NCBI GenBank assembly: GCA_965645245.1
Contig: OZ287068.1
Span: forward strand, 62,001 to 126,000
DNA length: 64,000 nt
Direction of reading: 5' to 3'
From: Massalongia carnosa
Lineage: Eukaryota
The position numbers and the translations under genes are program-made. This document shows, piece after piece, positions 34,878 to 55,953 of the stretch (positions within the stretch are counted from its first letter, which is position 1; each line of letters starts with the position of its first letter). The notes under the pieces were generated by a model. It saw nothing but the letters and a program-made list of their open reading frames with translations. It had not been told where the DNA came from and did not search any database.

Positions 34878-37800
34878 TTAACTCGTGGATTGTTCGGTTG
34901 CTATCCTCACGTCTCCAAATTGGCCGAGGAGACGTGAGGATAGCATGAATTTGGATGCTGCCTTGGCCAGTCTGGGGGTGCTAAAAATTTCTTGGAGATC
35001 GAACACCTTCCGGCCTATCCAGATAGTCTCCATGCGCAATCGATGGTGCCTGACGCACTCTAGAAGCACATGGTGAACTGTTTGATAACCGAAGCCGCAT
35101 GGGCATTCGCCCGTTTCGGTGCGGCCTATATCTGAGAGATACTTGCGTAGACCAATCTTACCTGTTCTCATCTGCACCAGGGTGGAACTCATTGACTTGT
35201 GAAGCCCCTGGTAGAGCTGCAAGACCTTGTTAGTGGGCTGGGAGAGGAGCCTTTTCGTCATCTGTCCGCGTTTTTCTGCCTCCCAATCCCCAGCCCATTC
35301 TTTGCTGATCATTGTCCTCATGTTGCGTTTTATCGCCGACTTCACTGTATGTCCGAGGAAGTCGAAGTGGGTGATGGAGGGACTCTGGCCAGGTTCTAAC
35401 CAGCCTGATGCTTCTTTTGCTGCTAGGTCTGCTATCTCATTGCCTTCTACTCCCATATGCCCAGGTATCCAGCAGAGTCTGACTCTGGCCTGCATCTCCC
35501 GGCATGCGTGGAGTTTTCCAATGATCTCGCGTAGTATGAACTGACCTGATTGAGTTCCGGGGTCGGCTACTGATTTGATGGCTGATTGATTATCTGCAAA
35601 AACCGTTATTATCTCCCCTTGCCATCGTGCAATAGCCGCCGCCAGTCCCAGGTCGATGCCCACTAGTTCCGCGAGGTAAACTGTGGCTTCTTTGTTCGTT
35701 CCGAGGCGGGTTCCTACCCGTGTGTTGTCGCTGGGGATGACCGCTGCCGCACCAACTCCGAAGGGGTTATCACTCCCATCCGTGTATATGACTATTTGAT
35801 TCGGCTCTGATGTCATCTTGTCATGCTCTTTGATTGCTTCCTCTTTACTGGAAGCAATGTGCGTTTCGGGGGGAGACCACCATGGTTCCACTATGAATGG
35901 AAGAATGACCTCTAACCGCCAGGGTTGAGGGCATTTCCCCGAAGTCATTAAGCGGGACTCTAGCTTAGCTAGAGGGCTCCAGTATCGATAGTGGGAGTCC
36001 GCTTGGCTTGTCCAGGCGCGGATCTCACGTATTATGGCGTAAAGGGGGCTTGAACGTATGCGCAGTAGTGACTCGTTCACTGCCTGCTCCATGCGTTGCC
36101 GGCCAGGCAGGAGGTGAAGCTCCATATCCAAGGCCGGGCCCGAGGTTGTTCTAAATGCCCCTGAAATGATGAGTGCCGCCCGTCGCTGAATAGATCTGAC
36201 GGCTTTGAGCACGGCGGTTGCTTGCGTGATAGTCCCGTATCCGCCCTCGGGAACATACCATGCAGAGCATCCAAAGGTGAGTTGCGGTAGTATGGTGGCT
36301 TGATAGATCCTTCGAAGGCTCGCAAGACTGGTGCCCCATGTGGAGCCCGCAAGGCTGCCTAGGGCCCCCAGTCTCTTTGAGGTTTTGGCTTCCAGTTTCC
36401 TTAAATGGGCGTGCCATTTGAGCTTGTCGTCAAATGTGGCGCCCATGTAGGTGGCGGTATGCTGTGGCTTGATGGTTTTGCCCGCTAGGGAGATAGCTCT
36501 CTCCGGGGGGTTCAAATCCGTCTCTGAGGGTCCTTTGATGAAGTGCAAGAGCTGGAATTTGGCGGGGGCAAATTTGGAGGCGTGTGTGTCCGCCCATTTC
36601 TGCTCCCTCGTCATGAACGAGGCTTCGAGATTTCTACAGTTCTGTTCTGCTGAAGTTCCAATAATTAGTTTGGATATGTCATCGACATAGCCCAAGTTCA
36701 TCTTTTTGGGCCCTTCCTCTTCCATAAGGTCGGCGTTGTAGAAGAGATAAAGAATAGGAGATATAGGGGATCCCTGAGGGACTCCAAAGTTCGTGGTGAA
36801 TGGTTGCGAGGTGTATTCGGGCATGGCGATGGTCGTTTTCCTTTCCTGAAGGAAGCTTTCGATCCATTTAGCTATGTTGCCGCCTATTCTTCTCTTCCGT
36901 AGGTTGTGCAGTAGTCTTTCGTGGGATACGTTATCGTAAGCACCCGAGATGTCCAGCATGAGCACTGTGGCCACTTCATTGTTAAGCCAGGCTGCGTGGA
37001 TGGCCTCTAGGAGCAGATGGAGGGCGTGTTCGGGTGATCTAGCTCGCCTGCCGCCTATATGGAGTCTGGGGAGTAGGCTCTCGGTCTCCACCGCGTGATT
37101 GATTCTGGTTGCAATGATCTTCTCCATAGTCTTACCTAAAGTGTTGAGCAAGGCTATGGGTCTGTATGAATTCGGCAAACTGTAGTCGGCCTTAGCTGGT
37201 TTTCTGAGAACCACCGTGGTGGATTCTCTGAAAGCATTGGGGTGATGACCCAGTTCCCAGCTGGCGTTATACAGAGCTACAAGTGTGGGCATGATAAGCG
37301 GTAACACATCTCTGAGGATTCTATTAGGCAGTCCGTCGGGGCCTGGGGCCGAGAGTGGTGCTGCCTTTGTGATGGCTTTAGTTATTTCCCGAGCTGAGAT
37401 GGGAGCAAATTGGATTGGCTCTGGATAGTGATAATCGGCGATGTCTTCAAGATTGGTCGCGTCCGGGATAGGAAAAAAGTGTCTGCGAAGCAGTTCAGCC
37501 TTGCCCGAAGCCTCCGTCACTTTGGAGCCATCGCTTTTCATTAGGGTTGGGGTGAAGGCTTGGAATGGGGTCGACCTGTTCTTAGCCCATTTCGCAAGCT
37601 TCCAGAGACCATCTGGAGTGCTGGTGGCCTCCTCTACCCTGTCCCTATGTGTTGTCTTAAGAGCTTTTTGTACGATTTTGTTTTTGCCGTTTCTCGCCTT
37701 TCGGTAGGCTTCCCAGTCTTCCAGAGAGCGCGTTTCCTTATGCTTGCGCCTAAGACGTCTGCATAGGGTGACTGCCTCTTTGCATTCCGGGGTAAAGCCA

Positions 37801-38732
37801 GGTTTTGAATGATCGCACCCTCTAGAAAGTGGGACTGCTGTCTCCACTGCGTGCTGGATAGCTTCAACTAACTCATGGGCCAAGTTGTCGAGTTCTTGAA
37901 CTGTGCTCACGCTCCTAGGTGCCGGGAGCTTGTCTGTCATCGTGTCTAGTAGCTTTTTCCTATCAGTCTTAGACCACATGCGAGAGGACCTTATGGCCCT
38001 CTTAACTGTGGTGATATCGAATGCTGTGCCAATGGGGTAGTGATCTGAGTCACAATCCAACTCTTTTCTCACATCGCACATGAGTACGGCTGAAGCCACT
38101 GCGGGGGTTGCGAACGTTAAGTCTATCGTGCTCTGTGCTGATCTATGATCGTATGTTATGGTGCTAGGGGGGAGCAGAAGTTCTAGCTCGCTTTGATCGA
38201 GAATTTCCAGTAGTTGGTCTGCCTCCGGATGTTGATGATGGTAGTCTTCGCCAGTCCATAGGGGATGGTGAAGATTGAAGTCCCCTACCACTATGTGTTC
38301 TCCCTCCACCTCTAGCGCCTTGCTTAGGTCTGGCAAGGTGCTGTACTTTCCCTGAGAGGGGGAGGGATTGTAGATGTTATGGATATTGATGACTCGCTGG
38401 GTTTCGCCAGGAAGTTCCAAGTGCAAAGTCATCAGATCGGGAGAGTGGAAGGTTACCTTCCAAGAGGCGCTTGCTATGTCTTTGTTGACGAACATGCATA
38501 CTCTCGGAGGGAGCTCTTGTTCTCCTGTTTCGGGGGGATAGAGAAGGTGGAAAACATTTTTGACCGGATTGTGCGTGGTGTGTTGATAGGGGTTCCCCGC
38601 CCAGGGTTCCTGGATGGCCAGGATGCCGTATTTCATGGTTTCCTCCCTGCGAAGGAAGTCCGCCATGACAGTGTTCTTGGATTTGTTGCAGTTGTACTGA
38701 AGTATGGACAGATAGTGGGTGTATTCACTCAT
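34878..38732 (-). CDS. LINE ORF2: APE endonuclease, RT, RNase H, CCHC
   Basis: ILQYN, LAIQEPW, GDFNLHH, SDH. YRPIALLNT, GVPQGSPISP, YVDD. YTDGS...WIPGHMGVEGNEIAD. CPCG...HVLLEC. Confidence 0.97.
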   Translation of the reverse strand: MSEYTHYLSILQYNCNKSKNTVMADFLRREETMKYGILAIQEPWAGNPYQHTTHNPVKNVFHLLYPPETGEQELPPRVCMFVNKDIASASWKVTFHSPDLMTLHLELPGETQRVINIHNIYNPSPSQGKYSTLPDLSKALEVEGEHIVVGDFNLHHPLWTGEDYHHQHPEADQLLEILDQSELELLLPPSTITYDHRSAQSTIDLTFATPAVASAVLMCDVRKELDCDSDHYPIGTAFDITTVKRAIRSSRMWSKTDRKKLLDTMTDKLPAPRSVSTVQELDNLAHELVEAIQHAVETAVPLSRGCDHSKPGFTPECKEAVTLCRRLRRKHKETRSLEDWEAYRKARNGKNKIVQKALKTTHRDRVEEATSTPDGLWKLAKWAKNRSTPFQAFTPTLMKSDGSKVTEASGKAELLRRHFFPIPDATNLEDIADYHYPEPIQFAPISAREITKAITKAAPLSAPGPDGLPNRILRDVLPLIMPTLVALYNASWELGHHPNAFRESTTVVLRKPAKADYSLPNSYRPIALLNTLGKTMEKIIATRINHAVETESLLPRLHIGGRRARSPEHALHLLLEAIHAAWLNNEVATVLMLDISGAYDNVSHERLLHNLRKRRIGGNIAKWIESFLQERKTTIAMPEYTSQPFTTNFGVPQGSPISPILYLFYNADLMEEEGPKKMNLGYVDDISKLIIGTSAEQNCRNLEASFMTREQKWADTHASKFAPAKFQLLHFIKGPSETDLNPPERAISLAGKTIKPQHTATYMGATFDDKLKWHAHLRKLEAKTSKRLGALGSLAGSTWGTSLASLRRIYQATILPQLTFGCSAWYVPEGGYGTITQATAVLKAVRSIQRRAALIISGAFRTTSGPALDMELHLLPGRQRMEQAVNESLLRIRSSPLYAIIREIRAWTSQADSHYRYWSPLAKLESRLMTSGKCPQPWRLEVILPFIVEPWWSPPETHIASSKEEAIKEHDKMTSEPNQIVIYTDGSDNPFGVGAAAVIPSDNTRVGTRLGTNKEATVYLAELVGIDLGLAAAIARWQGEIITVFADNQSAIKSVADPGTQSGQFILREIIGKLHACREMQARVRLCWIPGHMGVEGNEIADLAAKEASGWLEPGQSPSITHFDFLGHTVKSAIKRNMRTMISKEWAGDWEAEKRGQMTKRLLSQPTNKVLQLYQGLHKSMSSTLVQMRTGKIGLRKYLSDIGRTETGECPCGFGYQTVHHVLLECVRHHRLRMETIWIGRKVFDLQEIFSTPRLAKAASKFMLSSRLLGQFGDVRIATEQSTS

Positions 38733-39168
38733 AGTTCCTCTTCTCTAGTTCGGCTATGCTGAGAGCTAGTGCGTCGTTAATCGAGACAGCTCCCGCTTTG
38801 ATTTCGGCACCGCATGGATCTCTCGGACGGCATAGATGTCTCAGCACCATAAGGATGTCTCAGCACGGCATAGAGATCTTAGCACCGCATCGATCCTTCG
38901 GACGACAGTTAGGTTTCGGATTTGTGTATGCCTTGCTATGGGCCGCGTTGATGGGGCATACTGGGATGGTAGAGTAGGACAAGGAGAATAGGAAGAAGAT
39001 ATATAAAGAGGAGGTCCCAGACGGTATCCCTCATCATCTCACATCTCAAGACAATCAAAAAGCATAGCATTTTGATAGCACTGTTTGCAACGTTTTCTTT
39101 TCACCCAATTCAAATTTATACAACCACTACACTTAAATTTACTCTATTCAAATCCCTCTCCTCCAAAA

Positions 39169-40323
39169 ATGGCCACCCGCATCTCCAACAGAATCACCAA
39201 GCCTACCTCCCGCACACAAGGCAGCACTCTAGCCCGTACTAGAACTAGAGCTAGGGCAAATCTAGCCAACTCCAACCCAGACGTCGAAGTACCCGACTCA
39301 CAAGACAGCACGGCAACCCTTCAAAGCCATCCTCAACCTTCTCCTCTTCCATCTTCAGCGTTTAATTCCTCCTCACAAGGGCCTGTTATACCGGAAACCC
39401 GTTCTCGCACCCCTGATGACATTATTGAACTTAGAGCACAACGCGAAATGTCCCGCAGGGAAGCCGAGGAAAGAGAAAGAGTAAGTCTTAGGCGGGATAT
39501 CGAAACCCAACAAGCACGTGCCCGAGACGTGGTCCCTGGGCCAGTAGCCTCAGCTCAACAGCCTTCCCTATTATTTCCGACATCATTTCCACCGCATCGA
39601 CCAAACTCATTGTATACAGAAGGTATGGATCCTCGTTTTGTTTCTCTTATGAACGAATATCCCACTATCAAGCCCATATGGATAAAGCAAATCTCCGAGA
39701 ATACGTTTGACCCAATCAACATTACCAAGCTATGTACCGACATCGACGGAGTTCAAACCAACTCTAGATACGTCAAACTCGGAGAAGGTCTGGAAATCGC
39801 CACGAGAGAAGAAGATGGCTCCTTAAAAGATATCAAAGGGATAGTTCATTTGATACGATGTCTCGGGGTATATTGGATGATACTACTACACTTTGCACAC
39901 CCCGGTCTCCAGATAAACCTGATGAGAGCCTTCATGGCTTATCAGGACCATCTTCTATCATTATACGCCTTCTACACCTGGGACTCGGTTCGCATCTTTC
40001 ATTTGAATTTCCACAAATCTCGAGCCTTTCGCGGGATTGACAACCCGGATGGATGGAAAGAAATGGACCATTCCTTGGAAAGGCATCTTGTGCGGAAACC
40101 GTCCGCTTACTTTGCAAAACCGGACGATAATTCTACGGCTTTCAAAACCTCAGGCGAAAAGATTATCTGTAAGAAATACAACTATGGCAAAGACTGTCCC
40201 GTATATTGTAGATTCCAACATGTGTGTGAGAAATGTGGAAAGCAACATCGGGCGATGGACTGTACAAATGGAAAAAATCAACCCTCTAACCCAAATTCGA
40301 TGCCTCTCCCATCAAGGCAATGA
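39169..40323 (+). CDS. Ngaro-1 gag-like ORF1
   Basis: First ATG at 39169. C-terminal Cys/His cluster CKKYNYGKDCPVYCRFQHVCEKCGKQHRAMDC. Confidence 0.85.
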   Translation: MATRISNRITKPTSRTQGSTLARTRTRARANLANSNPDVEVPDSQDSTATLQSHPQPSPLPSSAFNSSSQGPVIPETRSRTPDDIIELRAQREMSRREAEERERVSLRRDIETQQARARDVVPGPVASAQQPSLLFPTSFPPHRPNSLYTEGMDPRFVSLMNEYPTIKPIWIKQISENTFDPINITKLCTDIDGVQTNSRYVKLGEGLEIATREEDGSLKDIKGIVHLIRCLGVYWMILLHFAHPGLQINLMRAFMAYQDHLLSLYAFYTWDSVRIFHLNFHKSRAFRGIDNPDGWKEMDHSLERHLVRKPSAYFAKPDDNSTAFKTSGEKIICKKYNYGKDCPVYCRFQHVCEKCGKQHRAMDCTNGKNQPSNPNSMPLPSRQ

Positions 40324-41944
40324 CTAACCGCCCCATTCTTATCCATCGCGGAGTCCTTTCCATACACCTTGACGGACAATCTAACAAAGATCCCACCGGG
40401 CCCATTGAAGAAAGAAGGCTGGGAGAAACATTTGGCCAATCACCCGGATCGCACTTACACACAAACAATTATCGATATCATCACCTACGGTGCCAAAGTT
40501 GGTTATACAGGACCACATCAACTCATTATTAGCGATAATCTTGCCTCTGCAAATGAGGCACCGGAAGTTCTTACCAATGACCTCGAAGAACAAATAGCTA
40601 GTAATCGGTTGGAGAAAGTCAACAACATTCCTTCTTGCTTTATATGTTCCCCATTAGGCCTTGTACCAAAGGCTAACGGTGGTTGGCGGCGAATCCATCA
40701 TCTATCGTATCCGGAGAGTAGCTCAGTCAACGACCACATACCGGAAGACTGGGGCTCCCTGGAATATACCAGCTTCGACGAAGCCATTAGGTTGATTGAG
40801 CAACGCGGGCCAGGGTGTATTCTTATTAAAAGAGACTTTGCGGACGCTTTTCGCCACATACCAGTAGCAAAAAACGATTGGTGGTTACTAGGTTTCAAGT
40901 GGCAGGATTCCTTTTGGATGGATAAATACTTACCCTTTGGGCTGAGAACGTCGCCGTTCCTTTTTGATCTGTTCGCGAAGGGTATCAACTGGATATTGTA
41001 CAACTGTGGTTGGAAAGACGCTATTCATTACTTGGATGATTTTTTGATAATAGTCAGCACCGGACCAGATGCTGAAAAGTTTGATCAAGTTTTCCACAAC
41101 ATTTGTAAAGATCTTGGCATGAAAATCAAGCTCGAAAAGAACAGAACTGGAACGACTTGCGATTTCCTCGGCATTGAAATCGATACCGCGCTCATGGAAG
41201 CACGCTTGCCTTCCGAAAAGTTACTAAAAGCAAAGACCCTAGTATCGGCAGCTTTGAATAAAAAAGCCATACCTACCCAGGAAGGAACTCGACTCTCTTC
41301 TAGGATTCTTATGCTTTGCAGCCAGAGTGGTAAAACCAGGAAGAGCATTTCTACGCCGTCTTTTCAATGCTACGGCAAGCGTAACCTCTAAACTAATCCA
41401 TCTTAACAAGGACATGAGGGCTGATCTTCTATGGTGGCATCATTTCCTACCTAAATGGAATGGCATACATCTGCTCAACCGTACTAGACATACTATGAGA
41501 ATATGGACAGATGCGTCCGGCTCATATGGTATGGGCGGCTTTATCCTCAGCGAGGATCAAAATTTGCATAATATACAAGCAGCCCGGCAGGCTTTTAGCA
41601 CACGCTTTACTACGCGCCTTAGGGCAAAGCATATCAACGTCAAAGAAATGACAGCAATTCTTCAAGCTATGAAAAAGTGGCTACCTATATGCAAGGGTAG
41701 TCATTTAATCCTCTATTGTGATAGCTACGCTGTCACGAAAGGAGTGAATAAAACCTCTATACGAGGCCAAGCAATGCATGCCCTGCGGGCAATTACAATG
41801 CTAGCTGCATTACATGATATCCAGATAGAAGCGCGATGGATATCATCCAAAGAAAATTATATTGCTGATCTCTTGTCTAGAGGACTTTTGAAGAAACTGG
41901 CTGACAAAATCCCTCAGTTTCAGGCTCTACCCTCAGCAATATAG
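40324..41944 (+). CDS. Ngaro-1 RT-RNase H (in frame with gag; frameshift at ~41272)
   Basis: SPLGLVPK, WRRIHHLSYP, DFADAFRHIP, LPFGLRTSP, HYLDDF. WTDASG, INVKE, CD, NYIADLLSR. A TACC duplication at ~41268-41277 shifts the frame. Confidence 0.9.
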
Positions 41945-42960
41945 GACGCGATCCACCCCCATCTTGGTACAGTGAGGTACCTCTAGACGAAATCGCAGCA
42001 CGATACCTCTGGTGGGGCCTGGCCACTAAGACAAGATCTTTATACACAACGGCAAGAAAGGGATACGTTCTTTACTGTAGGGTAAACCTCAACGCGCCAC
42101 CATTTCCAGCCAACATCCGGACGCTGTCTTCGTGGATCGCAGCGTTGGGTGAACGACGCCTGCAACCAAAAACTATTAAGAGCTACTTGACGGGCATAAG
42201 ATCATGCCAGATAGATATGGGCCTCGGTAATCTCGACGTATTTCATCACCCGGTGTTAGATCGCATCCTTACTGGCATAAAGCGAAAGAACGGTGAAGCC
42301 GAGAAACGTGAAAGGTTACCAATTACTAGAGAGATCTTAATCAAATTGCTAAGTCGTCTTGATCAAACGAAAGAGAAAGGCGCAAATTTACATGCGGCGT
42401 ACTGCTTAGCGTTTGCAGGCTTCTTACGAGCCGGAGAATTTACTTACACAACGCAAGATGTACTAGACCCAAGCTTTGATCAATGGCACCTCACCAGAAA
42501 ATCTATTAGGTTCGAAGCAGATCACCTACAGCTCTCTCTACCAGTCTCCAAAACCGATCCCTTTCGCCGAGGCATAACACTGACAATTGCGGCTACCAAC
42601 GATGTTGCTTGTGCACTAGCTTCTCTTACAAATTTATATAGGCGATTCCCAAGTTCTCCGGCCGCACCACTCTTTAAAAACGGTCAGTCCTTCACTCGAG
42701 ACTACATTACAACAGCGATGAAATCCACCTTAAGGAACTTGGGCTATATAGGAAATTTCTCTGGCCACTCGTTCAGAAGAGGTGCGGCAACAACAGCGCG
42801 ACGGGCAGGACTCACCGAAGACGAGATTCAGATGCTAGGAAGATGGAAGTCAGACGCATACAAGCTTTACATACAAACCCACCCCACTTACCTTCTTAAC
42901 GCCTCAAAACGCCTTCAAACATTACCCACGGAACCTCACAATCCAGTCACTAGGTCCTGA
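41924..42960 (+). CDS. Ngaro-1 tyrosine recombinase (frame open from ~41905, no early ATG)
   Basis: AFAGFLRAGE (Arg), SKTDPF (Lys), GHSFRRGAAT (HxxR), LGRWKSDAYKLYI (Trp, Tyr). Confidence 0.93.
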
Positions 42961-43683
42961 ACAACACCGCAAGCGGGTCGTTCCATGTTGGGGATTGGGA
43001 GTCTGTTCACAGCCCAAGGCCTGCGAGAGGGTCTTACATTAGTAGACAGCAAGGCCCTTATCGAGTCCCCCTCTCGAGGCCGGGGGCTGTGAGCAATAGC
43101 CCAAACATACTTAGTAGCAATATAACGAGATTGACACGAACTAGCTAGTTCGGCTATGCTGAGAGCTAGTGCGTCGTTAATCGAGACAGCTCCCGCTTTG
43201 ATTTCGGCACCGCATGGATCTCTCGGACGGCATAGATGTCTCAGCACCATAAGGATGTCTCAGCACGGCATAGAGATCTTAGCACCGCATCGATCCTTCG
43301 GACGACAGTTAGGTTTCGGATTTGTGTATGCCTTGCTATGGGCCGCGTTGATGGGGCATACTGGGATGGTAGAGTAGGACAAGGAGAATAGGAAGAAGAT
43401 ATATAAAGAGGAGGTCCCAGACGGTATCCCTCATCATCTCACATCTCAAGACAATCAAAAAGCATAGCATTTTGATAGCACTGTTTGCAACGTTTTCTTT
43501 CCCACCCACCCACTCCAGTTCTTCTGTCGCTTAGATAGAGGGAGTCTGTTCACAGCCCAAGGCCTGCGAGAGGGTCTTACATTAGTAGACAGCAAGGCCC
43601 TTATCGAGTCCCCCTCTCGAGGCCGGGGGCTGTGAGCAATAGCCCAAACATACTTAGTAGCAATATAACGAGATTGACACGAA

Positions 43684-45360
43684 CTAGGTCTGAGTACTGG
43701 GCTGCAAGCGACGGGTTGCCGATCTGGTGGTCATTGAAGAACTATCGTCGTTCTCCTTATCGCTCAAGACTTCCACAGCCTTCGAGGAGGGTTTCTTCTT
43801 TCCCTTCTTAGAAGCTGCTTGTGCCATGCTCCTGTTGGTAGAACTGGGGTTGTCTGCCAGGGGATCTACCTCCCCATGCGCCCGCTTCTTCCCCTTGCGG
43901 AGAGTTGGCACGGTTTGCCAATCTTTCTCTCGTACAGAGCCCGTTCGAGGGCCCTGTTCCACCTGGGTTGAGGCTGGGGTCCCCTCACTGCTTGTCGTGA
44001 CCGTCGGCGTGGTCGATGCCGGCGGACTGCTCCGTTCTTGTTCCTGACCATTTAGGGTCTCCCTTGAGGAGGCCCTGAGAGGCCAGAAGGGGAGAGCTTC
44101 TTCTTTGGCCCGCTTCATTCGGGCCTTTTCCTTCTTTCGCTCCGGGCAAGACTCTGCGCTTGCCCCGTGGCCCTCCTTGCCACACGCATTGCATTTGAGA
44201 GTGACCGATTTGCAATCGGTCATGTGGTGACTTTCGGAACATTTGAAGCATGTTTGATGCTTCTGTCGGCAAGCATGGCTCGTGTGACCATACTTACCGC
44301 ACCGGAAACATTGCCTAAGCCTGGCCTCCGGAACATGTCTTTCCACCACGAAAGATCTCCCATCCAAATATAGCTGCGAGGCCAAAATGGCATTGCAGTC
44401 TAATTCGTTCTCAAAGTATACCACCATGAATCTAGCTGTGGCTCCTGCCTTACTCGTGCGGGACAACCATTCTACTCCTGTTACCCTATTCCTAACGGGC
44501 ATATGTGACTTATTTTCCTCCCAGAGGCGTTCCTTGATATCTGTCATGCTTAGATTAGCCGGTACAAAGTGCGCGATTAAGCCGAAGCTTGGCTGTATTA
44601 TATTAGCTTTGCTCGATAGCCTGATGGCCCATCGGGTATCTTTTCTTAGGCGTTCCGTGTCTGAAGCGTTGTTGACTATTACCTGTAGGTCTCCGCTAGG
44701 GAGGACCCTTGCTGCTATTGCTACGGCTGCTGCCTTGGCTGTGCCATTGGAAATAGGGGGGGCGGGAGCGTTTTGATTGGTCGGAATTCTCGTGTTGTTA
44801 TGATCCTTTAACGCGTTAGATATTGCCGCGTTGATTCTGTCTTTGAGCGCTGAGGAGGCCAGTTTGGCCAGATCTTTTGCTATGGCTTCGTTGTTCAGTT
44901 TGACGACGATTTCACGAGCTTTCTCTTCTAGTATAGGAGCGGGGATGGACGTCCCCGAAAGCGTAGAGATCGTTGGGGCCGAGGCAGCAAAGGCTGCCCG
45001 TTCTGCCCAGGTTATCGTCCTCTTGTAGCCAGTAGTGGCCGCGGAGGAGGTAGTGGGTGTTGTGCGGGCGGTGTCTTGCTTGCGCTCGACATAGGTGACT
45101 TTAGTGAGCGTTTGCTCTGTAGTGTTCTTTATTTGGTTGATGGTAGCTTGGAGCTGATCCATTGTGGGCTGGTTGCGCATCTTCTCCAGTAGGCTGAGCA
45201 TACTGGAGAGTAACGGGGTGTAAGACTGAACCTTCATAGGTCTTTGCTTCTGATATGCCTCGCAGTTAGTTAAGTTATTAAGCACATTGGTGAGGAAGTG
45301 ACGATGCTCGTCTAGTGAATCGGGGGGGGCGTCGTTGGGCACGACAAAAGAGCTCCCCAT
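43684..45360 (-). CDS. LINE ORF1 (gag-like, three zinc knuckles)
   Basis: QCFRCGKYGHTSHAC, CFKCSESHHMTDC, CNACGKEGHGASAESC. The current stop is supplied by the Ngaro-1 CTAG end. Confidence 0.93.
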   Translation of the reverse strand: MGSSFVVPNDAPPDSLDEHRHFLTNVLNNLTNCEAYQKQRPMKVQSYTPLLSSMLSLLEKMRNQPTMDQLQATINQIKNTTEQTLTKVTYVERKQDTARTTPTTSSAATTGYKRTITWAERAAFAASAPTISTLSGTSIPAPILEEKAREIVVKLNNEAIAKDLAKLASSALKDRINAAISNALKDHNNTRIPTNQNAPAPPISNGTAKAAAVAIAARVLPSGDLQVIVNNASDTERLRKDTRWAIRLSSKANIIQPSFGLIAHFVPANLSMTDIKERLWEENKSHMPVRNRVTGVEWLSRTSKAGATARFMVVYFENELDCNAILASQLYLDGRSFVVERHVPEARLRQCFRCGKYGHTSHACRQKHQTCFKCSESHHMTDCKSVTLKCNACGKEGHGASAESCPERKKEKARMKRAKEEALPFWPLRASSRETLNGQEQERSSPPASTTPTVTTSSEGTPASTQVEQGPRTGSVREKDWQTVPTLRKGKKRAHGEVDPLADNPSSTNRSMAQAASKKGKKKPSSKAVEVLSDKENDDSSSMTTRSATRRLQPSTQT

Positions 45361-45541
45361 GGTTGCCACAATGCAGCCACAACAGAAGGGACGATATAAC
45401 TTTCGGCCAAGATAGCTACAGAGTCGGGGAGCAATTCTACGTGATCACAATGACTATTGAGGGCTTGTATGGGTAACGAATGCAATTTCTAGTGCTAGCT
45501 AAAAAGTGCGAAAGTTGAAGTAAGTTTCGTGGTTTTGTTAG

Positions 45542-47285
45542 CTAGTTCGTCTATGGCGAGAGCTAGTGCGGGACCGATGCTATTCGGCTAACAGCGGATT
45601 CGGCTACCAGCGGATCGGCTACCAGCGGTTCTCCACGCATGACGGGGACAACAGTGATGCAAAATCCGGACCTCTTCGGTTTTGCACGGTTATCCGCCAG
45701 GAGCTGGTTCGGATAACGACGGGGGATCGGATAGGGAAGGATGGATGACAAGGGGGAGATGGAGGCTATATAGAGGGCCGAAGCAGTCCTACATCTCCTC
45801 ATCATTTCGGATTCGGAGGTAGCACTGCATAGTAGTTTTTGAGTCCGATCCAACAATCCTCCAACCTAACGAACAATCCATCCTTCTTCCCTTCTTCATC
45901 TTCGATAAAACACGTATAAACCTAGCTCCGCTCTACTCCCTTCCATAAACAGAATGCCTACTAGCCGCCGCATTGCGTCCACCGCCGACGATAGCGGCCC
46001 CACTGGCCCCCTCACCCCCCTTGTGCCTGACTCTTAGCCGACCTCCGCAACAATGCAGGCCGGCCAGCCAGCGGAAGAAGGGCCTACACGCCCCGGTACC
46101 CCTGATGAGCTACTTGAACTTCGCGTACAACGCCGAAATGAGAAAGCTTAGGAAGGAAATTGTCGACAGACAGGCCGCGTTGGAGGTGGAGGAGGTCCCT
46201 ACGGGATTTCAGCATGGGGGATCCCAACTGACAAATCAGGCCTTTCAGGCAAGTCTACGAAGAAATCTATCAATATCAGCAAAGGTCTGGAGGTCATTAC
46301 TGGCGAGGATGACGCATCGTTGAGCGACATCAAGGGTATCACCCACCTAAATCGTTGTCTTTTGGTATACTAGCAAGCGGAATTGCACTTTTCACAACCA
46401 AGTCTGTTCAAAGATCTAGTGTCAAATGTCAGCTATACTGGCATTAACCAACATTGGTCAACGGGCCCGTCACATGCCCGTCACATGACATTGCCACCGC
46501 GGCACAGGTAAAAATTCTTCATTCCCCACATTCTTTCTTCCTTCGGAGACATCTCTTGATCTATCCCCTGGCGGCATACCTAGCTAGAAAATCATCTATA
46601 GATCAATGCCATTCATTTCACCTCATCTGGTCAAGACGTAAATCATCTCAACTGATCATCAGGGCAAAAAGCCTCAGATCTAGCAAGGGCCTTCATGAAA
46701 TACGAGGACCGGCTGATTTTGCTTCACAATACCTACACATGGGAGTCGTTGCTGCAAGTTCATATGCTATTTCATAGAACGCTGTGGTATCAAGGAGTGG
46801 ACGACCCCGTAAAATGGAGGCAAAGCTACCCAGACTTGGAAAACACATACCTGGTTAAACGCGACAGGCCTCTCAATAACCTTCAAACCCGGACCGGATT
46901 TGGGGGATACACAACCAATTCAAACAGCAATACTCCAAGGCCCTACCCTTGCCATCGGTATAACACAGGCAAGGACTGCCGAGACTGCAGATATCAACAC
47001 GTCTGCAGCAACTGCGGGAGACAGCACCCAGCATTTAGTTGCAGGGGCAACAACCCCAACAATAGCAACCCAAGTAGCCAATCTCGTAACAATCCGAATT
47101 GGACACCGGTCAATAGGAAGGATTGACTAGCCGGCCCATATGACCATATCGCGGAAGGTTTTCCGTACAGACTGATGGACAAACTCGAGGCTCTTCAGCA
47201 AGGACCACTCATCCTCGCCGGCTGGAAGAAGCACCTAGAAACTCACCCCGATAACGTTTACAAGCAGGCTATTTTTGATATTATT
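45542..47285 (+). mobile_element. Degenerate 5' fragment of the Ngaro-2 family (A end, broken gag, start of RT)
   Basis: Starts CTAGTTCGTCTATGG and matches the reverse complement of 54599-56267, with deletions and an insertion. Confidence 0.9.
46420..46676. mobile_element. 257-bp TG...CA insertion, probably a solo LTR
   Basis: Absent from the homologous gag at ~55205. Flanked by GATCTAG at 46413-46419 and 46677-46683. Confidence 0.7.
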
Positions 47286-47286
47286 C

Positions 47287-48033
47287 CGTCGACGAATCCA
47301 ATGTCAGTCGTGCCCTCAGACGACTTGGTTGGAATCGAAAGAAGGTGAGACGTCAGGCAGCTCAACGGAATCAAACTCTACGCGACGGTTGGATGCAACG
47401 ACTAGGAGGTTGGACTGCCGAGCAATTGGTCTTCCTAGACGAAAGTGCCGCGTGTGAAAGAACCGGTATTTATCTTCCTATCTTCTTCTCATCTTTCTTC
47501 TCATCTCATATATAGGTGATCGTCGATACGGCTGGGCACCGGCCGGTGTTCCTGCGACCATGGTTCAGGATTTGAGAAGGTCAAAGAGATGGAGCATTCT
47601 TCCTGCATTTACGGTCGATGGATATATAGCTTGGGAGGTGCATCAGGGCTCCATAACTGCATCGATCTTCAATGATTTTGTTCTAAATCACGTCCTTCCT
47701 CATTGCACTGCCGACGGAGGTCCTAGATCTGTTTTAGTGTTAGATAATGCTCGAATTCATTGGAATGACGATCTCATTCAGATGTGTGAGGCTGCCAACG
47801 TCACCTTGGCAAGACTACCTCCTCATTCTCCGGATTTCAATCCAATTGAGACGTCGTTTGCATTGCTGAAAGCATGGATTCGTCGAAATGGAGAGATGAG
47901 TCTCTCATATACAGAGGTGTATGGAGAGTTCGGACAATTTCTTCGGGATGCAGTCAAAGAAAGAAGTCGAATGGGAGACCCGGGAAATTTATTTAGAATG
48001 GCCGGTATTCAGTATCCCACTATTCAGATCTAG
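47287..48033 (+). pseudogene. DD34E Tc1/IS630-family (DDE_3) transposase, 5'-truncated
   Basis: VSRALRRLGWNRKK...LVFLDES, intron 47466-47515, GDRRYGWAP, VLDNARIH...LPPHSPDFNPIE (34 residues between D and E). Confidence 0.9.
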
Positions 48034-50196: not shown

Positions 50197-50433
50197 GTCA
50201 AAGAATAGGGGGGAGACTTTGACGAAAAATAGAGCGGGCAAGGGCGAAGGAGCTGGGGATGGCAGTGACTATATTCTACAGCTACGAATTTCAGTACTAG
50301 AGCAGGTGACAATGCATAGTTACCACATAGACGGTGAGGGAAGTTTGGCTGGTTGGTCGTTATTTTCGCTAAATTTTGAGGTGTCGTGGCCATTTCAGGG
50401 TCCGCGCAGACCCTTTTGCAAGCGACAGTACGT

Positions 50434-51574
50434 TACCAGCTTTCGGGAGGGTCGCGTGCTAAGATTTGAGTAGAAGTTCCTGTAAATTGGGCCATTTGTT
50501 AGCGATTTTCTCCAATTTGCCCCGCGATAGGAGGTCAGCGAGCTCATTTGACTTTGTTGGGATCCAACGTATTTCAATCCGAATATCATGAATAGCGGTC
50601 AGCATTGCGATTGCCCGAAGGGGCCGCATAGCGTTTCCACGAATAGATGATTTCCTTATTCCTGACGTGACAGCAAAGTTGTCACAGTGGAAAATCACAT
50701 GGCTCCCTGCACAAAGGGGGAGCCATTTACGCAAAGCGTGTAATATCGCTGTCATTTCTTTGACATTGATGTGAGTTGGCCTAAGCCGAGACGTGAAACG
50801 TTCAGAAAGTGCATGCTCAGCAGGCATGGTAAAACTGGTATGATCCTCCACTAGGATGTAGGCCCCAATGCCGTACCCTGATGCGTCCGTCCAAAGACGA
50901 AATGTCTCGCGAGGACGGTCTAACATGCGAATGCCATTCCATTTAGGTAAAAAAAGATGCCACCACTGCAGGTCGGCTTTGATATTCTCGTTAATATGAA
51001 TATGACGCCCACGAGACATGGCTTTTGCGTTAAAAAGACGTCGGAGGAAAGCTCTCCCTGGCACTACCACTTTAGCTGGAATGACAAAAATCCCACCAAG
51101 GAGTCTAATTCCTTCCTTCTAATCGATGATTTTTGCAAGGCCTGTTTGACGAGGTCTTTGGCTTTCTGCAGTTTGTCTGGTGGTAGCCGTGCTTCCATGA
51201 GCATAGTATCCAATTCAATGCCTAAGAAATCGATCACATGACCAGTTTTATTTTTCTTTTCGTTGACTGCGATTCCAAGGTCTTTGCAAAGATCGAAGAA
51301 GTACCGAGTGAAAGCTTCCGCTTCGGGATTAGTGCGGCAAACTGCCAAGAAATCATCTAGATAATGAAGCACATCATGTTGATTTTGTAAACACATCCAA
51401 TTTATCCCCTTTGCAAACAAATCGAATAGAAAAGGAGACGTGCGCAAGCCGAAAGGTAGAAAGCGCTCCATCCAGTAAACATTATCCCATTGAAATCCCA
51501 GCAACCACCAGTCGCTTTTAGCCACGGGTATATGGCGAAAGGCGTCGGAGAAATCCCTTTTTACTAATATGCAC
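50434..51574 (-). mobile_element. Internal fragment of the Ngaro-2 family (RT C-terminus, RNase H)
   Basis: Near-identical to 53127-54267. Confidence 0.92.
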
Positions 51575-52156: not shown

Positions 52157-53172
52157 TTAGGAGGCTGAGGGAGGGTGTTGAAAACGGCGTGAGGTGGCTA
52201 AGATGTGGGATTGATGCGTTTGGATATAAAGCTTGTAGGAGTCTGACTTCCACCGGCCTAGTAATTGAATGTCGTTCTCGCTAAGACCGACTTCCTTGGC
52301 CGACGTCGCTGCACCTCTTCGGAAAGAGTGACCTGAATAATTACCTGTTATGCCTAAGCTCTTAAGCCCTGATCGCATCGCGGTGGTCAAATATTCGCGT
52401 GTGAAAGCCTTTTGTTTATAGAATAAAGGGGAGGTTGCAGGTAGTGGAAACCGGGTGATCAAATTACGAAGGGATTTTACCGCGCAGGCCTCGTCCCCTG
52501 ATGCGGCTATCGTTAGCGCAATGCCTCGACGAAAGGGGTCGGTTTTGGACGCCGGCAAGGAGAGGAACAGCTTATCTGCTTCTAAGTGGACGGATTTCCT
52601 AGTTAAATGCCATGATTCGAAGCTTGGGTCTGTTAGGTCTCTGATAGTGTACGTAAATTCGCCTGCGCGAAGAAATCCTGCGAATGCCAGACAGTATGCT
52701 GCGTGTAGAGTGGCCTGCGCGTTGTCGGTTAAGTCCAATCGTTTCACTAAACGAAGGAGTATGTTTTTCGTAATGGGCATTCGCTCTTTCTTGTCGGCTT
52801 CGCCATTCTTTCGCTTTATGCCGGCAATGATTCTATTTAGTACGGGATGGTGAAACGTTTCTAGATCCTCAAAGCCCGTGTCGATTTGGCTGGACCGAAC
52901 TCCGGCTAGATAGGCCTTGATGGTTTTGGGCTGTATTTTGTGTTCTCCTAGCATCGCTATCCAAGATGACAAAGTCTGTATGGTTGCCGGAAATGGAGTC
53001 GCGTTCATTGATATTCTGCAGTGTGTTACATAGCTTCTTCTCCCTGTGTCATACAGACTGCGGGTTTTGACTGCCAAGCCCCACCACAGGTATCTAGCTG
53101 CTGGTCGGGATAGAGGTATTTCGCTATACCAGCTTTCGGGAGGGTCGCGTGCTAGGATTTGAGTAGAAGTTC
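52157..53172 (-). CDS. Ngaro-2 tyrosine recombinase
   Basis: AFAGFLRAGE, SKTDPF, GHSFRRGAAT, LGRWKSDSYKLYI. Confidence 0.93.
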
Positions 53173-54758
53173 CTGTAAATTAGGCCATTTGTTAGCGATT
53201 TTCTCCAATTTGCCCCGTGATAGGAGGTCAGCGAGCTCATTAGACTTTGTTGGGATCCAACGTATTTCAATCCGAATATCATGAATAGCGGTCAGCGTTG
53301 CGATTGCCCGAAGGGGCCGCATAGCGTTTCCACGAATAGATGATTTCCTTATTCCTGACGTGACAGCAAAGTTGTCACAGTGGAAAATCACATGGCTCCC
53401 TGCACAAAGGGGGAGCCATTTACGCAAAGCGTGTAATATCGCTGTCATTTCTTTGACATTGATGTGAGTTGGCCTAAGCCGAGACGTGAAACGTTCAGAA
53501 AGTGCATGCTCAGCAGGCATGGTAAAACTGGTATGATCCTCCACTAGGATGTAGGCCCCAATGCCGTACCCTGATGCGTCCGTCCAAAGACGAAATGTCT
53601 CGCGAGGACGGTCTAACATGCGAATGCCATTCCATTTAGGTAAAAAAAGATGCCACCACTGCAGGTCGGCTTTGATATTCTCGTTAATATGAATATGACG
53701 CCCACGAGACATGGCTTTTGCGTTAAAAAGACGTCGGAGGAAAGCTCTCCCTGGCACTACCACTTTAGCTGGAATGACAAAAATCCCACCAAGGAGTCTA
53801 ATTCCTTCCTTCTAATCGATGATTTTTGCAAGGCCTGTTTGACGAGGTCTTTGGCTTTCTGCAGTTTGTCTGGTGGTAGCCGTGCTTCCATGAGCATAGT
53901 ATCCAATTCAATGCCTAAGAAATCGATCACATGACCAGTTTTATTTTTCTTTTCGTTGACTGCGATTCCAAGGTCTTTGCAAAGATCGAAGAAGTACCGA
54001 GTGAAAGCTTCCACTTCGGGATTAGTGCGGCAAACTGCCAAGAAATCATCTAGATAATGAAGCACATCATGTTGATTTTGTAAACACATCCAATTTATCC
54101 CCTTTGCAAACAAATCGAATAGAAAAGGAGACGTGCGCAAGCCGAAAGGTAGAAAGCGCTCCATCCAGTAAACATTATCCCATTGAAATCCCAGCAACCA
54201 CCAGTCGCTTTTAGCCACGGGTATATGGCGAAAGGCGTCGGAGAAATCCCTTTTTACTAATATGCACCCTTTTCCTTGTTGTCTTATTTTGGCGACAGCG
54301 TCATCGAATGTGGGGTATTCCAAGGCCCCCCATTCCTGAGGGATGAAGTCATTTACCGACGATCCTTCAGGATGAGATAAATGATGGATACGGCGCCATG
54401 TACCATTTGATTTGGGTACGAGACCTAATGTGGATGATATGAACTTGGAGGGAAGAATATCTACTCGCGTCAATCGTCCCTTATCCCTCTGCTCCTCGAC
54501 ATCTTTAGTGAGTATATCAGGAGCTTTTTTTGCTGATAGTAGATTGGGGCTGAGGATGAATTGTTCTGGGCCGGTATACCCAATCTTGGCCCCATACCGA
54601 ATAATATCAAAAATAGCCTGCTTGTACACGTTATCGGGGTGAGTTTCTAGGTGCTTCTTCCAGCCGGCGAGGATGAGTGGTCCTTGCTGAAGAGCCTCGA
54701 GTTTGTCCATCAGTCTGTACGGAAAACCTTCCGCGATATGGTCATATGGGCCGGCTAG
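53152..54758 (-). CDS. Ngaro-2 RT-RNase H (1-nt frameshift at ~53770)
   Basis: LGLVPK, WRRIHHLS, LPFGLRTSP, HYLDDF, WTDASG, INVKE, NELADLLSR. Confidence 0.9.
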
Positions 54759-55953
54759 TCAATCCTTCCTATTGACCGGTGTCCAATTCGGATTGTTACG
54801 AGATTGGCTACTTGGGTTGCTATTTTTGGGGGTGGGTGTTGCCCCTGCAACTAAGTGCTGGGTGCTGTCTCCCGCAGTTGCTGCAGACGTGTTGGTATCT
54901 GCAGTCTCGGCAGTCCTTGCCTGTGTTATACCGATGGCAAGGGTAGGGCCTTGGAGTATTGCTGTTTGAATTGGTTGTGTATCCCCCAAATCCGGTCCGG
55001 GTTTGAAGGTTGTTGAGGGGCCTGTCGCGTTTAACCAGGTATGTGTTTTCCAAGTCTGGGTAGCTTTGCCTCCATTTTACGGGGTCGTCCACTCCTTGAT
55101 ACCACAGCGTTCTATGAAATAGCATATGAACTTGCAGCAACGACTCCCATGTGTAGGTATTGTGAAGCAAAATCAGCCGGTCCTCGTATTTCATGAAGGC
55201 CCTTGCTAGATCTTTGAACAGACTTGGTTGTGCAAAGTGCAATACCGCTTGCCAGTATACCAAAAGACAACGAATTAGGTGGGTGATACCCTTGATGTCG
55301 CTCAACGATGCGTCATCCTCGCCAGTAATGACCTCCAGACCTTTGCTGATATTGATAGATTTCTTCGTAGACTTGCTCAGAGTAACGTCACTGCACATCT
55401 TGGCGATATTGATGGGGTCAAACTTATTTTCCAAACTTTGCTTGAAATACAGCTGGTTTATGGCCGGAAAGTCACTTGTCAGAGGGAGGATTCTTGGGTC
55501 ATCCGTACCTTCGCTCTGAAAGGCCTGATTGGTCTGTTGGGATCCCCCATGCTGAAATCCCGTAGGGGCCTCCTCCACCTCCAACGCGGCCTGTCTGTCG
55601 ACAATTTCCTTCCTAAGCTTTCTCATTTCGGCCTGGCGCCCCTCTCGTACCAAAATGTCGCGTTGTACGCGAAGTTCAAGTAGCTCATCAGGGGTACCGG
55701 GGCGTGTGGGCCCTTCTTCCGCTGGCTGGCCGGCCTGCATTGTTGCGGAGGTCGGCTGAGAGTCAGGCACAAGGGGGGTGAGGGGGCCAGTGGGGCCGCT
55801 ATCGTCGGCGGTGGACGCAGTGCGGCGGGTAATAGGCATTCTGTTTATGGAAGGGAGTAGAGCGGAGCTAGGTTTATACGTGTTTATCGAAGATGAAGAA
55901 GGGAAGAAGGATGAATTGTTCGTTAGGTTGGAAGATTGTTGGATCGGACTCAA
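54759..55953 (-). CDS. Ngaro-2 gag-like ORF1 (frameshift near 54830; likely ATG at 55839)
   Basis: Homologous to Ngaro-1 gag (FDPINI.K.C.D, GEDDASLSDIKGI). CHRYNTGKDCRDCRYQHVCSNCGRQHPALSC. The copy at 46695-47126 shows the unshifted end ...PVNRKD*. Confidence 0.88.

Follow-up and report, generated by a model that had tools for sequence, protein, structure and literature searches.

Among retroviruses, the avian leukosis and sarcoma viruses (ALV/ASV) have a 5' splice site for env that lies a few codons inside gag, and Env starts at the gag AUG. Spliced RNAs are also made by long terminal repeat (LTR) retrotransposons, among them copia of Drosophila and BARE of barley. The LTR retrotransposon Cer1 of C. 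elegans likewise has a spliced RNA (PMC10309623). For the fungal Ngaro elements, which carry a tyrosine recombinase (YR), the YR open reading frame (ORF) has been described as sharing its frame with the reverse transcriptase (RT) and RNase H (RH) or as frameshifted (Muszewska et al. 2013; PMC3783388). How YR retrotransposons express a recombinase that is out of frame and lacks a start codon is left open in the available text of that survey, which says 'frameshifted' only. Here we describe two Ngaro-type elements, E1 and E2, in a stretch of 64,000 nucleotides (nt) from Massalongia carnosa (assembly GCA_965645245.1, contig OZ287068.1, positions 62,001 to 126,000 of the forward strand), referred to herein as the window and numbered from its first letter. 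Donor, branch and acceptor signals are present in both elements, in matching phases and conserved among relatives, and there is no conserved YR start codon. We infer that the spliceosome uses these signals, and that splicing probably fuses the N-terminus of Gag to a recombinase without a start codon of its own.

Both elements are Ngaro-type tyrosine-recombinase retrotransposons of the DIRS order. In the available text of PMC3783388, fungal Ngaro elements have what is also found here: gag, RT-RNase H and YR, split direct repeats arranged A1...B1-A2-B2, no methyltransferase, and a YR frame offset from that of RT-RH. Neither 'intron' nor 'splic' occurs in that text, whereas we propose a conserved intron and a fusion of the N-terminal part of Gag, Gag(N), to YR. 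The split repeats were checked on E1, where repeat families and self-BLAST paired 38745-39107 with 43145-43508 and 42997-43144 with 43540-43687; E2 is abutted by other copies. Pfam searches of the window elements returned RVT_1 (E = 9.6e-15), RT_RNaseH (E = 3.1e-8) and RNase_H (E = 5.9e-4). Homologues and catalytic columns identify a tyrosine recombinase instead of a DDE integrase: the E1 YR has 1410 homologues at E<=1e-20, some of them named integrase, and the columns R...K...HxxR...W...Y are invariant or nearly so in the YR alignment. The Pfam matches of the YRs to Phage_integrase fell below the cut-off (20.4 bits for E1 and 18.3 bits, versus 27.1 bits). Pfam found no methyltransferase domain between RH and YR, and the RH ORF ends within the start of the YR ORF; the absence of this domain separates Ngaro from DIRS1-like elements. 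E1 and E2 are 64% identical in DNA over 2.5 kb, and 66% identical in YR. Their features are given below, a slash marking each proposed cut.

38745..43687, plus strand: E1, complete Ngaro element (from repeat families, self-BLAST and Pfam domains)
38745-39107, 42997-43144, 43145-43508 and 43540-43687, plus strand: E1 split direct repeats A1, B1, A2 and B2, respectively
39169..40323, plus strand: E1 gag ORF by translation, 384 amino acids (aa), ATG at 39169 and TGA at 40321-40323
39169..39622, plus strand: coding part of the proposed exon 1 of E1, which covers residues 1-151 of Gag and the initial base of codon 152
39620..39628, plus strand: E1 proposed 5' splice site, (G)AAG/GTATGG, phase 1, cut between 39622 and 39623
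39623..41917 (or to 41923), plus strand: E1 proposed intron, within which lie RT-RNase H as well as the core and the stop of gag
40324..41944, plus strand: E1 RT-RNase H coding region (Pfam), disrupted here by 4 additional bases near 41270
41901..41905, plus strand: E1 branch-point-like CTGAC, branch A at 41904
41915..41917, plus strand: E1 first CAG past the branch, phase 1, 13 nt from the branch A, the commonest spacing in relatives
41921..41923, plus strand: E1 second CAG (TTTCAG/G), the acceptor of the preliminary description, phase 1, cut between 41923 and 41924, 19 nt from the branch A
41918..42960, plus strand: E1 tyrosine recombinase, proposed exon 2, coding part, with no ATG upstream of the codon position 'QIDM'
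55839-52157, minus strand: E2 coding part, same plan as E1
54820..55839, minus strand: E2 gag ORF, ATG at 55839, with a frameshift of this copy in a C/A homopolymer run close to the 3' end
55503..55512, minus strand: E2 proposed 5' splice site, GAAG/GTACGG, phase 1, cut between 55509 and 55508
53195-53191, minus strand: E2 branch-like CTAAC, 19 nt before the acceptor
53173..53195 (with the branch), minus strand: E2 acceptor, TTTACAG/G, phase 1, cut between 53173 and 53172
52157..53172, minus strand: E2 tyrosine recombinase, proposed exon 2, coding part

The preliminary description, made from the letters of the window, had placed a donor, a branch point and an acceptor in each element, and re-reading of the sequence found every one of them at its position. 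As it had also claimed, the donors lie at homologous gag codons, falling on an aligned Glu-Gly pair of two Gags that are 38% identical. All four sites are in phase 1. When the exons were joined by script, no stop interrupted the frame in either element before the end of YR, counting from the gag ATG, as predicted for an in-frame junction, giving 496 aa (resuming at 41924) or 498 aa (resuming at 41918) in E1 and 448 aa in E2. The sequence GTRNGN occurs seven times in E1 gag (three in phase 1) and twice in E2 gag (one in phase 1), and only the proposed donor is common to both. A perfect GTAAGT at 39481-39486 of E1 gag, which is in phase 0 and which E2 does not share, is probably due to chance.

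At the 3' end of the proposed intron, the YR frames open 42 nt (E1) and 30 nt (E2) before the motif RDPP..SWYSE, with no ATG in either copy. The last stop of the E1 YR frame is the TGA at 41902-41904, within CTGAC itself, and in E2 the sequence ATG-GCC-TAA sits between branch and acceptor (53188-53180). The E1 acceptor first put forward, ending at 41923, is present and in phase, but the CAG 6 nt upstream, with its cut between 41917 and 41918, is typical of the family and is the likelier acceptor or an alternative to it. The 19-nt spacing of the downstream CAG is also found in E2, the L009 group and L003. E2 has this acceptor only, because its codon at the place of the first CAG is AAT.

According to the mechanism that we propose, the full-length transcript would double as genome and Gag mRNA, and passage of the in-frame stop would yield Gag-RT-RNase H. 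A fraction of this transcript would be spliced, from a phase-1 donor between the N-terminal coiled part of Gag and the Gag core to an acceptor composed of a CTRAC branch point and a CAG, likewise in phase 1, that lies 4-14 codons before the conserved recombinase N-terminus. Removal of the 2.3-kb intron would take out the Gag core together with RT-RH, and translation from the gag ATG would then produce a recombinase fused to Gag(N), with a length of 496 or 498 aa in E1 and 448 aa in E2. The shared Gag N-terminus may tie the recombinase to the complex of Gag and cDNA, similar to the way in which Gag-Pol ties integrase in LTR elements.

Since the branch and acceptor double as codons of the RH tail, two families alone would be thin evidence for such a mechanism. 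Metagenome contigs were scanned with the YR alignment, which yielded 79 loci whose YRs are 38-56% identical to that of E1, and gag, RT, RH and YR were mapped onto these loci by tblastn. They fall into three groups by their YR N-terminus: clade A with RDPP..WY, like E1 and E2, clade B with QPP..WV, and clade C with PNPP.QF. Two Gag relatives of clade B are annotated in an ascomycete, the truffle Tuber brumale. A non-redundant set of 39 elements (<85% identity over the first 150 nt of YR) was chosen regardless of motif; counts of start codons and slippery sites refer to 38 non-redundant elements, and counts of donors to 25 non-redundant gags. Conservation of donor, branch and acceptor in other family members in the face of synonymous drift, which the preliminary description had named as a check, held in all three clades and across about 25-39 non-redundant elements.

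The acceptor pattern was defined as CTRAY-N7-16-YAG with an open frame to the YR motif. It was present at 69 of 76 YR starts in the window and the 79 loci, in phase 1 at 64 of them, phase 2 at four and phase 0 at one. The seven YR starts without it belong to L018, L020, L021, L034, L066, L072 and L076, most of which are visibly rearranged or mutated. Within the non-redundant set, 34 of 39 elements have the pattern in phase 1, two have it in another phase and three lack it, versus 41 of 886 control windows of equal size from the same elements with the pattern in any phase and 12 of 886 with it in a fixed phase. The arrangement expected of an intron, a branch CTRAY followed at short distance by the first YAG, is found in E1, E2 and 34 of 39 relatives. 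In most loci the opening of the YR frame is 15-54 nt upstream of the motif, the closing stop being the TGA or TAA inside CTGAC or CTAAC, and CAG follows the branch A by 13, 17 or 19 nt and puts YR in phase 1 in these loci. Read in the RH frame, the motif encodes Ala/Thr-Asp/Asn ... Pro-Gln, with the T of CTRAC at the third place of the Ala/Thr codon. This T is invariant in the pattern-bearing sequences, and 22 upstream third positions average 0.40 bits; as those sequences were picked for the pattern, the unbiased figure is 34/39. In clade C, CTAAC stretches across different codons (Leu-Thr) and is still kept with a CAG in phase 1.

On the donor side, we scanned the 25 gags for every GTRNGN located <=45 codons before the conserved [FY]P motif of the Gag core. 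Twenty of the 25 have a phase-1 GTRNGN in the boundary region between the N-terminal part of Gag and its core. By phase (1/0/2), the sites numbered 32/4/2 in the boundary region and 35/22/35 over 29.4 kb elsewhere in the same ORFs, so that the density in phase 1 was 10.0 per kb versus 1.19 (Fisher p 1.9e-6). The narrower GTAYG[TG] occurred 19 times in the boundary region, always in phase 1, and 10 times elsewhere in these ORFs. A conserved candidate 5' splice site that matches the fungal consensus, as an intron would need, is found in E1 (GTATGG), E2 (GTACGG) and 20 of 25 gags. The scan missed L009 and L003, both of which have G/GTAAT in phase 1 at the homologous codon, as well as L020 (a decayed copy), L048 (truncated) and L001 (none).

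In clade B, 15/15 gags have xGT-AYG, 27 or 29 codons before the motif (GTAYGT in 14 and GTATGG in L076). The preceding Gly is always encoded by GGT or the preceding Ser always by AGT, and the next codon is Thr, always ACG, or Met; the codons flanking the donor vary freely. The putative clade C donor, AATG/GTAAC, is at the homologous place, in phase 1 and 26 residues before the FDP motif, the equivalent distance in E1 being 28. Nine of the 15 clade B gags also contain a second phase-1 site, x/GTG[AG]GA, 14 codons before the FP motif and homologous to the place of the E1 and E2 donors, which may be an alternative or ancestral donor. Gag(N) is more than a leader: in the clade B alignment it comprises some 205 residues, among them invariant blocks as well as a coiled stretch.

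Several observations weigh against expression of the recombinase by splicing. CTRAC and CAG are conserved codons of the RH tail, and part of their conservation is therefore protein constraint. The donors GTATGG, GTACGG, GTAATG and GTAACC are weak by consensus, and L001 has no good donor in the boundary region. The proposed intron, at 2.3-2.9 kb, is long for fungi. The compared elements also share descent; their counts are not independent, and the p-values overstate independence. The motifs might be kept without any splicing, through protein constraint on Gag and the RH tail or as an RNA signal: CTRAC and CAG overlap conserved RH codons, and the Gly-Thr/Met encoded at the donor could be a protein motif of Gag. 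We consider this explanation very unlikely, because one synonymous codon is used throughout (GGT, AGT and ACG at the donor, and at the branch a T in third position) while neighbouring synonymous sites are scrambled. Moreover, the residue before the donor switches between Gly and Ser yet xGT is kept, clade C retains CTAAC in different codons, and in each of the three clades the two sites, far apart as they are, have matching phases.

The start codons of some YRs count on the same side. Of 38 non-redundant elements, 8 have an ATG in the interval from the YR-frame stop to the first codon of the motif, and 30 have none. All eight ATGs lie at one codon, the first motif codon, where the other elements have L, I, F, Q, K or G. 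The E2 family also includes YRs with an ATG, namely the protein P0002, which starts M-A-Q-F-T-G, and the following partial copy.

50434-51574, minus strand: partial E2-family copy from RT to the YR start, in which CTAAC and CAG are retained and CAA stands in place of the TAA of E2

In P0002 and in this copy (50427-50567), the change of TAA to CAA, which is synonymous in the RH frame, leaves an ATG-led YR frame, with the ATG between branch and acceptor and three codons before the acceptor. The earlier claim that YR lacks an ATG therefore stands for the E1 and E2 copies and for 30 of 38 relatives, but not for some copies of the E2 family. These ATGs would fit a YR that starts itself, either by re-initiation or, on unspliced RNA or an RNA made from an internal promoter, at a non-AUG codon or an ATG of its own, as would the many database YR proteins with a leading M, although gene callers may write M for GTG or TTG. 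A self-started YR nonetheless seems unlikely to us. The majority of relatives have no such ATG, and E1 has none before 'QIDM', well within the N-terminal domain. The ATG of E2 lies between branch and acceptor, and in the full copy a stop comes directly after it. A self-start would also leave the conserved in-phase donor, branch and acceptor unexplained.

The frame relationships of the genes bear on a further alternative. Compared with the contigs of 4/4 sequencing runs (X1, X2, X5 and X6), the window's E1 copy carries 4 extra bases at 41270, with further single-base differences from the run contigs at 40874, 41046 and 41347. As the 4 extra bases are peculiar to the window copy, gag, RT and RH of the family are in one frame and YR is in the -1 frame, overlapping the end of RH by 40 nt in the E1 family. 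Retroviral gag-pro-pol frameshifting involves a similar layout, in which the downstream ORF is in the -1 frame, overlaps shortly and lacks a start codon. Where RH and YR overlap, a -1 ribosomal frameshift could generate a Gag-RT-RH-YR polyprotein from unspliced RNA, and YR is indeed in the -1 frame of RH, with a short overlap, in E1, E2 and their relatives. In contrast to the retroviral overlaps, however, no conserved slippery heptamer is found in E1, E2 or the relatives: the E1 and E2 overlaps contain no X_XXY_YYZ, and the 11 of 38 relatives that do have one carry it at non-homologous places and mostly with an unusual make-up. Owing to the YR-frame stop inside CTRAC, a shift would be possible over a short stretch only, the RH stop varies in position between -56 and +82 nt around the YR motif, and the conserved gag donor would be left without explanation. 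Taken together, these observations make a frameshift highly improbable.

In E1, pol continues the gag frame after a single TGA (TGA-CTA at 40321-40326), and E2 has TGA-CTA-G in the pol frame at 54761-54755 on the minus strand; the E2 copy itself carries frameshifts at the gag 3' end and in RT/RH. The RT match lies in the gag frame <=400 nt past a single stop (TAG, TGA or TAA) in 12 of 23 non-redundant loci, and the clade B gag end keeps CGT-TAG. Because gag and pol share a frame with one stop between them, these sequences suggest that Gag-Pol may be made via stop-codon read-through. In clade C the pol frame, a different one from that of YR, has no stop for about 1 kb across the entire YR ORF, which results in overlapping pol-frame ORFs of about 1000 aa that cover YR completely (L061, 1344-4304; L063, 1386-4391; L069, 1618-4620).

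Other partners for the two splice sites were also considered. Downstream of the donors, at 30-400 nt, no branch and acceptor pattern was found for 18 of 20, and the two exceptions are out of frame; a short intron within gag was ruled out, as the donors have no in-frame local acceptor. Upstream of the branch, at 20-690 nt, no donor in RH phase 1 was common to even three elements and 17 of 30 had none at all; a short RH-to-YR intron was ruled out, there being no common in-phase donor. Six loci with a YR but no upstream RH (L007, L035, L058, L059, L065 and L067) were considered as processed, intron-less copies and found to be 5'-truncated or ordinary copies.

A database protein, P0018 (513 aa; NCBI and Logan), has a YR that is 51% identical to that of E1, and its N-terminus has the helix motif of the Gag N-terminus (BLASTP E 6e-7 versus E1 gag and 2e-8 versus E2 gag). 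The Gag N-terminal motif is joined directly to YR, with no Gag core between them. P0018 thus has, in a third family, the Gag(N)-YR layout that was predicted. Two points temper this observation. P0018 may be a gene-model artefact and not represent a transcript, and a profile search with the clade B Gag N-terminus returned 33 longer proteins, of which the seven examined were all ordinary Gag with no fusion. A search with P0018 residues 1-140 found P0018 itself only, and a protein atlas look-up of residues 1-200 gave scores that were all <0.9. Among representatives, a search with P0018 returned a few YRs with N-terminal extensions (P0141, P0239 and P0225) and long polyprotein models (P0133, P0138, P0165 and P0211), the origin of which could not be judged.

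Both elements sit among nested transposons. E1 lies between two long minus-strand ORFs, 34881-38744 and 43687-45444. The former encodes domains of a non-LTR (LINE-like) retrotransposon, namely an endonuclease, an RT and an RNase H, and the latter has no Pfam match; E1 is probably inserted into the LINE-like element that flanks it. The contigs of runs X1, X2, X5 and X6 contain no joints over 39108-42996, which has no bearing on splicing, the library types being not known. The summed word depth of the E1 contigs over the same interval was about 21,000 in X1, about 130-320 in X2 and 2 in X5 and X6, a contrast that, with library types not known, may reflect copy number, expression or sample make-up. 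One further partial copy of the E2 family is present.

45539-47289, plus strand: partial E2-family copy (self-BLAST)

This copy lacks 139 nt of E2 (55515-55377), in a gap that starts 7 nt before the proposed donor and deletes it, and has about 257 additional nt beyond the gap.

The closest known parallel to the expression scheme proposed here is ALV/ASV env, in which one transcript is likewise the genome and the mRNA for Gag and Gag-Pol, and the spliced form borrows the gag AUG for a downstream gene that has none. The two differ in what is carried over and what is expressed: ALV/ASV Env carries about six Gag residues, whereas 110-210 residues, a conserved domain, would be carried over here, and the downstream gene is an envelope in the viruses and a recombinase in E1 and E2, which are not retroviruses. 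In copia, BARE and Cer1, splicing similarly divides the roles of genomic RNA and mRNA, but the splices yield Gag alone or accessory proteins, and none is known to fuse Gag to an integration enzyme. Full-text literature searches, the coverage of which does not include the founding paper (Goodwin & Poulter 2004) and later reviews by that group, turned up no account of Ngaro or DIRS elements being expressed through splicing; the founding paper and the reviews may have priority.

We can also offer a broader and more tentative proposal, which we hold to be possible but somewhat short of probable. In at least three fungal Ngaro clades, the recombinase would as a rule be made only as a Gag(N) fusion, through a conserved intron of 2.3-2.9 kb. 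Gag(N) would dock the recombinase to Gag assemblies or cDNA, and the efficiency of splicing would set the ratio of Gag to Pol to recombinase. As both repeat termini are retained in the spliced RNA, copying of this RNA in trans could give rise to daughter elements, which would be RT-less and recombinase-only, a possible route from retrotransposons to Crypton-like recombinase elements.

If the recombinase is indeed expressed by splicing from gag, this would be the first expression logic for the order, paralleling the sub-genomic mRNAs of retroviruses. It would also correct gene models, such as that of the E1 recombinase, of which the genome annotation of the window holds only a 247-aa piece (P0001), and would predict that Gag and the recombinase of these elements share an assembly module.

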